In this document: positions 1 to 42,658 of the stretch, piece after piece
How positions within the stretch are numbered: position 1 is the stretch's first letter
Layout: the number at the start of each line of letters is the position of its first letter
Assembly: GCA_001189095.1 (NCBI GenBank)
Contig: LFCK01000002.1
Span: 1,937-65,936 of the forward strand
DNA from: Parcubacteria bacterium C7867-001
GTDB lineage: Bacteria > Patescibacteriota > Minisyncoccia > Phycocordibacterales > Phycocordibacteraceae
Length of the DNA stretch: 64,000 bases
Direction of reading: 5' to 3'
The notes under the pieces: model-generated
Database searches by the model: none
What the model saw: only the letters and a program-made list of their open reading frames with translations
What the model was told of the DNA's origin: nothing
Position numbers and translations under genes: made by a program

Positions 1-183
1 GTTTCACTTCCCGAGGTTCGCGATCTTCCTTGCGGAAGAACAATCCATACGGATTTGGTTTCCCTATTCGGACATTTCCGGATCAAAGGTTACAAGTCAC
101 CTCCCCGAAACATTTCGCAGACTAGTCACGTCCTTCATCGCTGTTGTAAGCCTAGGCATCCACCGTGCGCCCTTAATTGTTTC
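1..183 (-). rRNA. rrl: 23S rRNA, 5' end (partial, continues beyond window start)
   Basis: Reverse complement reads ...AATTAAGGGCGCACGGTGGATGCCTAGGC...GCGATGAAGGACGTG...GGGAAACC...GGGAAGTGAAAC, matching the universally conserved 5' domain of bacterial 23S rRNA; 5' boundary approximate. Confidence 0.85.
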
Positions 184-493
184 CTGTGCGGAAACCTGAA
201 CACCACATGTTCATTATGATCTTTTGCAATTCTTCCTCGGCACTAACAAATGCCGAGGTCGATTACCTTTTCTTTTTTCTTGCGTATTCAGTTATCAAGG
301 AGCCCGTATCTCTTGAAACGAAAACCGCCCCGAGGGGCGGCTTTCGTGTTTCCACGATGGGTCAGCGACCCGTTCCGCTCCTTGGTTTAGGTAGACTTCG
401 TAGTGATAGACACGTAGGGAGGAGTATATGCGTGTCCCCCTACCCTGTCAACACCTCGGGGTTTCAGCTGCTTTCTGGGGATACTGGGGACAG

Positions 494-3672: not shown

Positions 3673-4317
3673 CTACACGATTGCCTGAGCAATTGATCCC
3701 ACCACAAAGGCGGCGAGGAAGTTAAATACAAAGGAGAGGAGAATGAACGTGCGCATGCGCATCTTCGTAAACCCTAGGATAGTGATACCAATCTCGTCCG
3801 GGAGCGGCGACGCAATGATGAGACCACCCACCAAAAACGCGAGCCAGCGCAACGACTTGAGCGACATGAGCCGCTTAAAGCGCCGATATGCGCCCTGCTC
3901 AGCAAGGAGTGAGGTGAGATGTTCGGAGAAACGATCGCGTATAAAGCGGAAGATGATGAGATCGCCACAGACCGCACCGAGCGCTGCCCAGAACGCCGTG
4001 AACAAAACCCCCTGCCCTAACGCGAGCTCACCAATGGTCACCGTCGCGGGAGCAACGGTGAGAAGCGACGTGAAAAAGATTCCGGCGATGAACGTACCGA
4101 GTATCGAAAGCTCTTTGGTCTGCTCGAGGAGAAGCGCGAACGAATTATTGCCGATAAGAATTCCGGCAACCACAAGACTTATCGCTATGATGACGAGATC
4201 AAACCAGATCTCCTGATGAGCTTTGGCTAGGCGTCGTCTCATGAGAAGCGGATTACCACGGAACACCGACTGAAGTAAAACGAAGCACGAGAAGCGCAAC
4301 CGCGAGAATGAGCGCAA
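3673..4317 (-). CDS. Integral membrane protein, unknown function
   Basis: 214 aa ORF, 5-6 predicted TM helices; start may be internal Met (MRRRLAKAH...). Confidence 0.5.
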   Translation of the reverse strand: MRSFSRLRFSCFVLLQSVFRGNPLLMRRRLAKAHQEIWFDLVIIAISLVVAGILIGNNSFALLLEQTKELSILGTFIAGIFFTSLLTVAPATVTIGELALGQGVLFTAFWAALGAVCGDLIIFRFIRDRFSEHLTSLLAEQGAYRRFKRLMSLKSLRWLAFLVGGLIIASPLPDEIGITILGFTKMRMRTFILLSFVFNFLAAFVVGSIAQAIV

Positions 4318-40557: not shown

Positions 40558-41010
40558 TTGGCAGAACGGAGAAAACACATGATCTTCGATACCGAACCCG
40601 CGGACTTCAGCGCTCGCATGCAGGTGGTCGGCTGCTATGTCGAACACGCAGGCAGGATACTCTTGCTGCGTCGTCATGAGAAAAAACCGGAAGGCGGCAC
40701 CTGGTGCGTTCCGGGTGGAAAAATCGATGCCGGAGAGGCTGTCCTCGAGGCGGCGATTCGCGAAACCGAAGAAGAAACCGGCTATCGCATTCCGCCTGAA
40801 CTCATCACCGAACACGAGATGGTATTCGTTCGGTATCCAACGGTCGACTTTACCTACAAGCTCTTCCACGCAAAGCTCGACGAGCGTCCGCACATTATCC
40901 TGCGGCCGAATGAACACACTGACTTCAGGTGGGTACTGCCACACGATGCACTCACCTTCGCCCTCATCGAGGATGAGGGCGCGTGCATCCGACGGATCTT
41001 CAAGATATGA
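40558..41010 (+). CDS. NUDIX hydrolase
   Basis: Nudix box GGKIDAGEAVLEAAIRETEEETG. Confidence 0.88.
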   Translation: MAERRKHMIFDTEPADFSARMQVVGCYVEHAGRILLLRRHEKKPEGGTWCVPGGKIDAGEAVLEAAIRETEEETGYRIPPELITEHEMVFVRYPTVDFTYKLFHAKLDERPHIILRPNEHTDFRWVLPHDALTFALIEDEGACIRRIFKI

Positions 41011-41040
41011 AAAGCGCCGCCCTCTGGGCGGCGCTTTTTT
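41011..41040. terminator. Bidirectional terminator (aaagcgccgccctctgggcggcgctttttt)
   Basis: Between nudix gene and tRNA-His. Confidence 0.6.
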
Positions 41041-41052
41041 CTTTCTCTGTTG

Positions 41053-41126
41053 GGCGACTTATGGGACTCGAACCCATGACCGCCTGGACCACAACCAGGA
41101 GCTCTACCAGCTGAGCTAAAGCCGCC
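41053..41126 (-). tRNA. tRNA-His (anticodon GTG) with genome-encoded G-1; CCA not encoded
   Basis: Hand-folded: G-1:C73 pair, acceptor GCGGCTT/AAGTCGC, D-arm GCTC-AGCTGGTA-GAGC, anticodon arm CCTGG-TTGTGGT-CCAGG, T-arm ATGGG-TTCGAGT-CCCAT. Confidence 0.8.
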
Positions 41127-41159
41127 ATGCTTCGTCCTTATAACACGCAAACGACAACG

Positions 41160-41182
41160 AAAAAAGCGCCGAAGCGCTTTTT
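41160..41182. terminator. Hairpin terminator between tRNA-Leu and tRNA-His (aaaaagcgccgaagcgcttttt)
   Basis: Perfect stem flanked by A5/T5. Confidence 0.55.
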
Positions 41183-41188
41183 CCTTAG

Positions 41189-41270
41189 TGCCCAGGAGAG
41201 GACTCGAACCTCCACGCCTTGCGGCACATCCACCTCAAGGATGCATGTATACCAATTTCATCACCTGGGC
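41189..41270 (-). tRNA. tRNA-Leu (anticodon GAG), type II with long variable arm
   Basis: Acceptor GCCCAGG/CCTGGGC, discriminator A, anticodon arm CATCC-TTGAGGT-GGATG, variable arm TGCCGCAAGGCGT, T-arm GGAGG-TTCGAGT-CCTCT. Confidence 0.8.
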
Positions 41271-41947
41271 CTGTATCGTCTCGTACTGAGCGACTCGCCC
41301 ACTATACGCAAAGCGCGTTGTATTTTCAACCGCTTCCGCGCAAGACAAACCACACCTCTTCCAGAATACATCTTCCGTAAAATGAGCAGCGATTCTCTCT
41401 TTCCGTATTTCAATTGAATAACGGTGGTGAGTTTTGATTTTCCGATATGGCCACGAACGCCAAGTAAGCGTAAAAGAGTCTCCCGGACCCAGCTTATGTG
41501 AGCTTCGCTCGCGGAAACAAAAGCGAGATAGAAAAGATAGCTAGTTTTCCAGCGCGGATCAAAATAACTATAAAAAGAGCCGTCGCCATCATGGTGACCA
41601 CGAAGGAAGTCGAAGAAATAAAGATCTGGAATGGCAAGTTTACCGAGTGTCTTTGTCTTACCCGAGGAAAGCCCGATTGAAACGAGAAAACGGTACAGCG
41701 TAACGTCGCTAAATTGAATCCGTGTAATCTGCCTACCAGTATACCCAGAGACTTTTTTAGTTATAGAAACCTTCTTACCAATGCACTTCATGAAATTCCT
41801 CAGCTGCTGAATGTCCTTCGACGTAATTTCTATGTGACGTCCGTCGATAGAAAGGCAGCCGTCAGTGGCGAGCAAACCAACAGCGTACGCAATATTCGGC
41901 GACCATTGCACTTCCCTTCTTATTGGTCTGCGTCCTCGTTCTTTCAC
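41261..41947 (-). mobile_element. LAGLIDADG-family homing endonuclease gene (two-motif, single-chain), GTG start
   Basis: Motif 1 AYAVGLLATDGCLSIDG, motif 2 FLRGHHDGDGSF ~100 aa apart; AT-rich relative to flanks; 3' end overlaps tRNA-Leu 5' end by ~10 nt; -10 TATAAT just upstream. Confidence 0.75.
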
Positions 41948-42017
41948 CCATCAATTATAAGCGCATACCATTTAAAATAAAAAGAAACTCGGCACGTGGC
42001 CGGAGTTCTTCGGGAGG

Positions 42018-42548
42018 TTACGCTGCAGGAGCTTCTGCTTTCTCTTCAGCGACCGGAGCGGCTTCTTCTACAGCCACTTCGACTGCCTGAGCCTCTTCTG
42101 CGCTCATGTCTGCCTCTGGAGCAGCCTCGATAGGTGGTGCGGTTTCCGCAATCGGCTCAGCGACTTCCTTCTCTGCAAAGTCATCGGTAGAGACGTTCAT
42201 CATGCGCATGTTGCGGAGCTGGCGCTTCACTTCACGAGCGACCTTTTCACGGATGAAGTAGAGCTTTGCACGACGGACCTTCGAGCGACGGACGATTTCT
42301 ATTTTCTCGATGAAAGGAGCGAAGAGCGGGAAGATGCGTTCAACACCGATGCCCGACATAGTTGCACGAACGGTGAAGGTCGCACCTGCTTCTGTACCGT
42401 GCTTTACGGCAAGAACGAGGCCTTCGAAGACCTGCGTGCGGGTCTTCCCTTTTTCGACGATCTTCTGGTGGACGCGGACGGTATCGCCCGGGCGAATCCC
42501 GAGTTTCGTGCGCTCCTCTGTTTTGACTGGAGTGATGACGGTTTGCAT
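42018..42548 (-). CDS. rplS: 50S ribosomal protein L19 with ~60-aa Ala/Glu-rich C-terminal extension
   Basis: Start refined to MQTVITPV...; core [31 protein letters not shown]...[10 protein letters not shown]. Confidence 0.9.
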
Positions 42549-42658
42549 AACTTTTATGCGCGGAACTGTACCACGCATCCCCCGTAAAAGCAAAATGGCC
42601 GTGTTTTGACCCGTCGCTCAGCAAGCTATAGTATCGAGACAGAAAAGGAGGCCTACCT

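Follow-up and report, generated by a model that had tools for sequence, protein, structure and literature searches.

A probable free-standing two-domain LAGLIDADG homing endonuclease gene in a compact cassette 5′ of the tRNA-Leu(GAG) gene of Patescibacteria

Homing endonuclease genes usually avoid harm to their hosts by residing inside self-splicing introns or inteins, and free-standing homing endonucleases are best known from phages and organelles. In fungal and algal organelles, some free-standing LAGLIDADG genes supply a replacement copy of the host gene part that they displace and leave a scar of the original. Here we analyse an open reading frame (ORF) of 228 amino acids in a 64,000 nucleotide stretch of Parcubacteria bacterium C7867-001 (contig LFCK01000002.1, positions 1,937 to 65,936, forward strand; this whole stretch is called the window). 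The ORF probably encodes a two-domain LAGLIDADG homing endonuclease and belongs, as a free-standing gene, to a compact mobile cassette located 5′ of the tRNA-Leu(GAG) gene in Patescibacteria.

Two described cases provide the background for this locus. T4 SegB is, according to its abstract, a site-specific endonuclease needed for the preferred inheritance of the T4 tRNA gene region (PMC2330249). The LAGLIDADG enzymes encoded in rRNA insertions of the Candidate Phyla Radiation are mostly single-domain homodimers and many of these insertions are group-I-like; one of them, I-ShaI, was shown to home into a highly conserved RNA gene (PMC11270868). The latter study makes no mention of tRNA or of free-standing copies, and a literature search for free-standing LAGLIDADG genes at tRNA-Leu returned nothing relevant.

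The gene and its protein family

The ORF starts with a GTG codon at 41947 and ends with a TGA stop codon (41263..41261) inside the tRNA-Leu(GAG) gene. A preliminary description, made from the sequence alone, had reported the same ORF and start codon, and its estimate of an overlap of about 10 nucleotides with the 5′ end of the tRNA proved to be exact. GTG at 41947 is the likely start because the resulting N-terminus, MKERGRRPIRREVQWSP, fits the family consensus MxxRGxKPKRxEVxWSP; the database gene call of 216 amino acids is thus probably too short. The core of the locus consists of the following features:

41261..41947, minus strand: LAGLIDADG homing endonuclease gene, two-domain, 228 amino acids, GTG start (ORF call, profiles, structural model, substitution rates)
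41948..41973, minus strand: tRNA-Leu-like scar, AAATGGTATGCGCTTATAATTGATGG, resembling tRNA-Leu positions ~14-40 and carrying a TATAAT -10 box
41301..41329, minus strand: promoter-like site in the codons of the last helix (TTGAAA at 41329..41324, 17 nucleotides, TATAGT at 41306..41301)
41188..41270, minus strand: tRNA-Leu(GAG), complete (ARAGORN; Rfam tRNA, 49.3 bits)

Both LAGLIDADG motifs of the preliminary description, thought to be about 100 residues apart, are present: GLLATDGCL comprises residues 24-32 and GHHDGDGSF residues 117-125, 93 residues apart. D29 (GLLATDG) and D122 (GHHDGDG), the acidic residues at the ends of the two LAGLIDADG helices, are kept in at least 97% of the 83 full-length family members, and the first hairpin of the second domain (GsFYSY...D.RW..S) is nearly invariant in this set. 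Together with the structural model, this conservation leads us to infer an intact active site and one conserved substrate-binding surface.

Pfam LAGLIDADG_3 matches the window protein marginally (22.8 bits, cut-off 22.5) and is matched by 22 of 22 aligned relatives (best E=3e-9); 2 of these 22 also touch Pfam LAGLIDADG_WhiA. The window protein is matched by PHROG 4645 "endonuclease" (E=5e-23) and by the PADLOC model "HEase" (E=9e-6), which is itself a homing endonuclease model; among NCBIfam models none matches it. Among solved structures, the archaeal intron enzyme I-Tsp061I (PDB 2dch, E=1.8e-5) is the closest in sequence. An AlphaFold2 model built on the family alignment (predicted local distance difference test, pLDDT, 90; predicted template modelling score, pTM, 0.86) consists of two alpha-beta-beta-alpha-beta-beta-alpha domains, and this order of secondary structure elements fits the tandem LAGLIDADG fold. 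A Foldseek comparison of the model with the PDB again gave I-Tsp061I as the top match (E=1e-11), followed by WhiA, an intein endonuclease, I-AniI, bI3, I-DmoI and I-SceI, and all 50 PDB matches listed are LAGLIDADG-fold proteins. Profile searches, which the preliminary description had proposed as a check, and the fold comparison thus support the assignment, and motifs, predicted fold and profiles all identify the window protein as a two-domain, monomeric-type member of the LAGLIDADG family.

The gene has neither of the usual shelters. An Rfam search of 40900..42300 at E<=10 found no group I intron or other intron RNA and matched only tRNAs. In the ORF, which has its own start and stop codon, Pfam found only LAGLIDADG_3 and no intein-type (Hint) domain. 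Together with the complete tRNA, these searches bear out the earlier statement that no host intron or intein is apparent and that the tRNA is uninterrupted. A second copy of the endonuclease gene was not found within the window.

Public annotation names the family members "hypothetical", "LAGLIDADG family homing endonuclease" or, wrongly, "intein-containing". One protein with the public name "Intein-containing protein" (P0088, locus L006, 5001..5666) is a stand-alone ORF of 221 amino acids whose homologue in the window has no intein-type domain, and the name is not borne out. Gene calls of relatives often run across tRNA genes (L170, 436..612; L171, 2378..2484; P0072), which yields spurious terminal "extensions" that are translated tRNA, such as ...IRVQVPSPAQ in P0139 and ...VRVQIPPP in P0175. 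Two distant relatives, P0147 and P0201 (L172, 605..1459), have, as read by eye, an apparent N-terminal helix-turn-helix (...LTQAEIADVLGCSATTIARRM...) fused to the LAGLIDADG core; the P0147 gene lies 33 nucleotides upstream of tRNA-Leu(CAA).

Distribution, divergence and probable mobility

A protein search found 898 relatives. The top 120 are about 210-245 amino acids long and, the window protein's own database copy excepted, 55-69% identical to it; the named ones are from Patescibacteria. A profile search of 1.84 billion cluster representatives yielded 271 clusters at E<=1e-30 and 18,396 at E<=1e-3, and in a species-representative genome collection at least 362 loci encode a relative. For 80 of these 362 loci the neighbourhood was fetched and analysed. 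In 75 of the 80, a tRNA-Leu(GAG) gene of the same orientation lies directly downstream, and in the remaining 5 the contig ends first; the spacer between the endonuclease and tRNA-Leu genes ranges from -107 to +46 nucleotides and is mostly between -22 and +13. Upstream, the gene for ribosomal protein L19 (rplS) is found in 76 of the 80 loci, with a gap of 10-429 nucleotides in 72 of those, and is itself preceded by a gene for an RluA-type pseudouridine synthase in most loci. Loci L032, L040 and L049 have no rplS upstream and the gene still abuts tRNA-Leu(GAG), which shows that the element follows the tRNA and not rplS. Four distant relatives from the profile search adjoin tRNA-Leu genes as well: L171 and L172 lie upstream of tRNA-Leu(CAA), L173 upstream of tRNA-Leu(GAG) and L170 downstream of tRNA-Leu(CAA). 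Viral contigs contained only one weak relative.

The 3′ side of the tRNA-Leu gene is variable. The gap to tRNA-His ranges from 2 nucleotides to more than 3 kb across loci; L001 holds genes for a helicase, a Fic protein and a transposase there, and L014 holds an extra ORF of 297 amino acids. In 19 of the 80 genome loci the contig ends within 300 nucleotides past tRNA-Leu(GAG), and no contig ends close upstream. Insertions or strain variation thus appear to be concentrated on the 3′ side of tRNA-Leu(GAG). One contig end, in L114 near 4048..4106, translates to LIHISEPTRLRRISYAVFCLK and is joined to a truncated endonuclease gene; it is probably sequencing-adapter-derived sequence and an assembly artefact.

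Island-like DNA of this kind, which is present in several loci such as L001, and the PADLOC match would be in line with an accessory nuclease that serves the host in defence or in DNA uptake and processing and that lies next to the tRNA only incidentally. We consider this very improbable: the PADLOC model is a plain homing endonuclease model, no conserved partner genes adjoin the gene, and the gene is found on the 5′ side of the tRNA in a fixed cassette (scar and dual-coding promoter, see below) and not in the variable 3′ region.

The uniform neighbourhood had at first suggested another explanation, namely that the protein is a domesticated LAGLIDADG-fold host protein, for example a WhiA-like DNA-binding regulator or an RNA maturase, which is inherited vertically in an rplS/tRNA-Leu operon and was lost in many lineages. 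The order of RluA-like gene, rplS, endonuclease gene and tRNA-Leu is indeed conserved across phylum-level diversity, and WhiA and the maturases bI3 and I-AniI are among the best structural matches. The decisive test of this explanation was to scan metagenomes with the L19 of the window as query, since such a scan reaches the closest relatives irrespective of the presence of the endonuclease gene. Among relatives with an L19 65-93% identical and a readable downstream region, 52 loci were empty and 12 occupied. The occupied loci carry the gene always in the identical slot; in the empty loci tRNA-Leu(GAG) follows within ~40-80 nucleotides of the rplS stop codon. The comparison of relatives recommended in the preliminary description therefore revealed a polymorphism at an identical site, and the gene is absent from this site in ~80% of the closest relatives, which argues against a host gene.

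The protein is under strong purifying selection. The ratio of nonsynonymous to synonymous divergence (dN/dS) of the endonuclease gene is 0.04-0.11 in substantially diverged pairs and 0.26 in one nearly identical pair, and 89 of 93 copies are intact; the four disrupted copies have a frameshift (L119) or premature stops (L138, L072, L046). Such constraint would be expected of a host gene as well, but the synonymous divergence (dS) would not: the dS of the endonuclease gene is higher than that of both adjacent host genes in 5 of 6 comparable genome pairs, 1.4- to 6.5-fold in four of them. In three pairs the values for the endonuclease versus L19/RluA-like genes are 0.66 versus 0.29/0.42, 1.40 versus 0.51/0.65 and 1.40 versus 0.22/0.78; L028/L031 is the only comparable pair without the excess.

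Relationships among the endonucleases likewise depart from those of their hosts. The identity of the endonuclease correlates weakly with that of host markers (Spearman 0.27-0.38, compared to 0.66 between two host markers); the positive sign of this correlation speaks for the host protein. The window protein is nearest to the proteins of L009 and L012, whose host-marker identities are 0.57 and 0.53, and is farther from the proteins of its five closest hosts (host-marker identity 0.75-0.79; bootstrap 0.99). Across 58 loci, endonuclease and host share their nearest neighbour in only 18, so nearest-neighbour relations often conflict with host relatedness.

As the preliminary description had noticed, the gene is AT-richer than its flanks, with a G+C content of 46.5% versus 54.0%, about 8 points lower. 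The same bias is seen in 87 of 88 loci (mean 8.2 points), while the G+C content of the host is still tracked (r=0.86).

These observations make a domesticated host protein improbable, and it was dropped as the main explanation after the empty sites, the dS values and the incongruence had been found. The consistent AT bias, the tRNA-derived scar at the 5′ end, the missing match to NCBIfam and the lack of a WhiA-type C-terminal helix-turn-helix point in the same direction, as do the two catalytic aspartates, which are both kept. WhiA and pure maturases have usually lost the catalytic acidic residues. The family is widespread but sporadic and deviates in composition, and is not a gene conserved with normal composition across relatives. 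Taken together, the signs are those expected of a homing endonuclease gene with vertical inheritance over short spans and with exchange or loss over longer ones. The first of the two possibilities left by the preliminary description, a free-standing selfish endonuclease, is thus supported by the 12 occupied and 52 empty sites, dN/dS, the dS excess, the incongruence and the AT bias.

The two ends of the cassette

Directly upstream of the start codon, a stretch of 25-45 nucleotides is similar to the part of tRNA-Leu between and including the D loop and the anticodon loop, with the consensus AATTGGTAKACGCTATATAC-TTGAGG; in the window this scar lies at 41973..41948. Of 83 occupied loci, 52 contain the pattern GG[TC]A..C..-N5-9-TTGA[GT] in the 80 nucleotides that precede the start, and none of the 52 empty sites contains it; in 1.7 Mb it occurs 73 times in real tRNA-Leu genes and 20 times elsewhere. 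Local alignments of the scar with the cognate tRNA extend from positions ~13-17 to ~37-55, and the scar stops near tRNA positions 38-40. The scar is more similar across lineages than to the tRNA of its own lineage and therefore appears to travel with the cassette. Upstream of the distant relatives L170-L173 no tRNA scars were found, and local matches there are at chance level.

Inside the scar lies the TATAAT that had been noted just upstream of the gene; it is located at 41959..41954 on the minus strand, 6 nucleotides before the GTG. A TAnnnT hexamer ends 4-10 nucleotides before the start in 65 of 83 loci, compared to 10% at random positions, and only 9 of 83 loci have a Shine-Dalgarno-like motif upstream of the start. 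Because a -10-like hexamer is found so near the start and Shine-Dalgarno-like motifs are rare, the -10 box of the scar is probably the promoter of a leaderless endonuclease mRNA.

Since the upstream scar ends at the anticodon loop, the element may plausibly have entered an ancestral tRNA-Leu gene immediately 3′ of that loop and close to the classical intron position. The similarity also suggests that the enzyme may recognise tRNA-Leu DNA, and the location of the distant relatives at other tRNA-Leu genes fits this.

A scar from the D loop to the anticodon loop that stops at ~38-40, next to the classical tRNA intron site, might also have been left by an intron. The gene would then be an immobile remnant: an endonuclease-bearing intron once resided in the anticodon loop of tRNA-Leu, its ribozyme was lost and the gene merely persists. 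The closest solved structure is indeed that of an archaeal intron-encoded enzyme, and rRNA insertions that contain LAGLIDADG genes abound in these bacteria (PMC11270868). Against this stand the search for group I or other intron RNA, negative even at E<=10, the complete and uninterrupted downstream tRNA and the two-domain structure of the enzyme, since the rRNA-insertion enzymes are mostly single-domain. The strong constraint and a synonymous divergence above that of the host genes argue for continuing mobility. We regard such a remnant as unlikely, and the second possibility of the preliminary description, a remnant after intron loss, finds no support as an account of the locus in its present state, which has no intron RNA, a complete tRNA and a constrained protein.

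At the right end the cassette appears to replace the native promoter. In empty sites the rplS stop codon is followed, in many cases after a hairpin and T-run, by a TATAGT box, and the tRNA begins 11-35 nucleotides beyond this box. This native TATAGT promoter is missing from occupied sites, where a junction comparison shows that the T-run after rplS directly abuts the tRNA-like scar. An unbiased promoter scan picked out TTGAAA-17-TATAGT, with 10 of 12 consensus matches, within the 3′ end of the endonuclease gene: TTGAAA corresponds to codons L207-K208 of the conserved RKRLKI, and TATAGT lies within the codons for R-I-V. The codon used for L207 is TTG in 56 of 66 cases with leucine, compared to 21% of the leucine codons elsewhere in the same genes (p=2e-28), and that for K208 is AAA in 61 of 70, compared to 65% elsewhere. 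A TAnnnT hexamer follows 17 nucleotides downstream of the -35 element in ~50 of 70 loci. About 20 loci have a second in-frame TTGAAA-18-TATAAT/TATGAT slightly farther upstream, many of them without a match at the main position. The codons of the last helix thus likely double as a sigma-70-type replacement promoter for the tRNA-Leu gene, which the cassette has separated from its native promoter; the biased codon use at the -35 element supports this interpretation. The scar and the putative dual-coding promoter appear to be anatomical features that have not been described before.

A TTGACA-like motif (TTGACAAAGTAAT) was observed 9-15 nucleotides before the first tRNA nucleotide in 28 of 83 occupied and 2 of 52 empty loci (e.g., L034, L046, L115, L135). 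It partly encodes the basic tail of the protein and is kept at the nucleotide level despite differing C-terminal tail residues. A resemblance of the "GESL" codons to the tRNA T arm was judged to be over-reading.

Candidate target sites were sought in the empty loci. CACCT is located immediately 5′ of the tRNA in 26 of 52 empty and in 0 of 83 occupied loci, and the near-palindrome CACCT|GCCCAGGTG at the leader/tRNA junction of empty sites was considered as target. It was kept only as a weak alternative, because half of the empty sites are without CACCT and the scar points to the anticodon arm. Sequence variants of the tRNA were considered as a possible source of immunity. The anticodon stem CTACC is present in 24 of 52 empty sites and in 0 of 14 occupied close relatives (p=0.001), yet in 13 of all 83 occupied loci, a comparison confounded by phylogeny. 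The D-stem pair 10:25 of the tRNA shows no consistent pattern between occupied and empty loci.

In the window, the order rplS, endonuclease gene, tRNA-Leu(GAG), tRNA-His(GTG) is found on the minus strand throughout. The features flanking the core are:

42018..42593, minus strand: rplS, ribosomal protein L19 with an acidic C-terminal tail (ORF list; Pfam Ribosomal_L19 in the upstream gene of three related genomes)
41974..42011, minus strand: weak hairpin and T-run 3′ of rplS (-11 kcal/mol, z-score 0.17, no better than shuffled sequences)
41159..41184, minus strand: terminator-like hairpin (11-pair stem, then a T-run) between tRNA-Leu and tRNA-His
41052..41125, minus strand: tRNA-His(GTG) (ARAGORN), a frequent right neighbour at variable spacing

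The position of the gene between rplS and the tRNA-Leu/tRNA-His pair is thus as the preliminary description had it, but the rplS terminator named there amounts to a weak hairpin with a T-run. The hairpin at 41159..41184 is the probable end of the transcription unit, and tRNA-His is outside the cassette. A strong hairpin with T-runs on either side (41009..41039) is located between tRNA-His and a convergent NUDIX-like ORF (40558..41010, plus strand) and is likely a bidirectional terminator. The acidic tail of L19 in the window lineage comprises ~50-60 amino acids, is rich in Glu, Ala and Pro (42018..42180, minus strand) and differs in length and sequence among close relatives. Positions 1..186 of the window (minus strand) contain the 5′ end of a 23S rRNA gene that runs off the window.

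Proposed homing and comparison with known systems

In the cycle that we propose, the enzyme would cut endonuclease-free alleles at or in the tRNA-Leu gene, with the scar suggesting a site in the stretch from D arm to anticodon arm. Repair from an occupied allele, with rplS and the tRNA as homology, would copy in a cassette of scar, endonuclease gene, embedded promoter and tRNA 5′ region, and this insertion would replace the native tRNA promoter and leader. The cassette would stay harmless because the codons of the last helix could serve as a sigma-70-type promoter (TTGAAA-17-TATAGT) for the complete downstream tRNA, and the endonuclease itself might be expressed as a leaderless mRNA from the -10 box in the tRNA-Leu-derived scar, 6 nucleotides before the start codon.

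Several points weigh against this interpretation. Cleavage activity, target site, homing and promoter use are all deduced. The promoter and leaderless mRNA assignments use consensus motifs, and promoters of this host group are uncharacterised. The occupied allele retains a complete tRNA-Leu, which leaves self-immunity unexplained if the target is wholly within the tRNA. Some empty loci (L090, L100, L120) have a promoter sequence that hardly differs from the 3′ end of the endonuclease gene, so that both the right cassette boundary and the order of events are ambiguous: the gene could have been lost, leaving the promoter behind, or an ancestral promoter could have been captured by the reading frame. 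The positive correlation of endonuclease and host distances indicates that much of the inheritance is vertical, and repeated loss could account for part of the patchiness. Finally, the closest pair of an occupied and an empty locus (L014 and L098, rplS 94% identical) shows no clean co-conversion gradient; the right flank of L014 is disturbed in this comparison by an extra ~850 nucleotides.

Beyond the preliminary description, the sequence comparisons point to a phylum-wide family tied to tRNA-Leu, to 3′ codons with a putative tRNA promoter and to a tRNA-derived 5′ flank. I-TevI represses itself, and an operator for self-repression of this type is possibly present here as well. That these are phylum-wide, tRNA-Leu-specialised cassettes which destroy or displace the native promoter and 5′ region, compensate for this with the promoter in the last helix and reuse the scar as a leaderless promoter, and possibly also as such an operator, is a broader proposal for which we see the chances as evenly balanced.

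If the proposal is true, a selfish endonuclease gene without intron or intein would stay harmless beside an essential RNA gene in a manner not described before, with a free-standing LAGLIDADG gene tied to one tRNA gene in hundreds of species of a phylum with ultra-small genomes. Confirmation would provide a natural case in which selection on dual coding for protein and promoter can be measured, a marker by which to trace DNA exchange among uncultured Patescibacteria and a new set of two-domain meganucleases that probably recognise conserved tRNA-Leu DNA. It would also call for caution with genes annotated as "hypothetical" or "intein-containing" or extended across tRNA genes.

The window gene is not intron-encoded, not an intein and not WhiA. 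With I-Tsp061I (2dch) and I-DmoI it shares the monomeric two-domain LAGLIDADG fold, a length of ~200-230 amino acids and the acidic residue at the end of each LAGLIDADG helix. These two enzymes are encoded in introns of archaeal rRNA genes, whereas the window gene is free-standing in a bacterial intergenic region beside a tRNA, and the identity is only ~22%, in structural alignment. WhiA (PDB 3hyi), the second-best structural match, has a double LAGLIDADG-like fold as well. It carries a C-terminal helix-turn-helix, has no catalytic acidic residues and is a conserved single-copy host gene; the window family, in contrast, keeps the catalytic aspartates, has one short C-terminal helix in the model and is absent from most close relatives.

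The scar and replacement copy of the fungal and algal organelle genes parallel the upstream scar and the complete downstream tRNA of the window. Those genes are organellar and usually fused in frame to protein genes, whereas here the host gene is a tRNA gene and its promoter and 5′ region are replaced. The I-ShaI-type enzymes (PMC11270868) come from the same host phylum and belong to the same enzyme superfamily, but reside inside rRNA insertions, while the window family is two-domain, free-standing and tied to tRNA-Leu.

T4 SegB (PMC2330249) is a phage enzyme of the GIY-YIG type, encoded in the T4 tRNA gene cluster, unlike the LAGLIDADG enzyme of a cellular chromosome described here, and its abstract mentions neither a promoter in a coding sequence nor a tRNA-derived scar, the two features proposed for the window cassette. 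Judged from this abstract, SegB is nevertheless the nearest functional analogue that we found: it too is encoded by a free-standing endonuclease gene among or next to tRNA genes, and the proposed logic of the two systems is equal.

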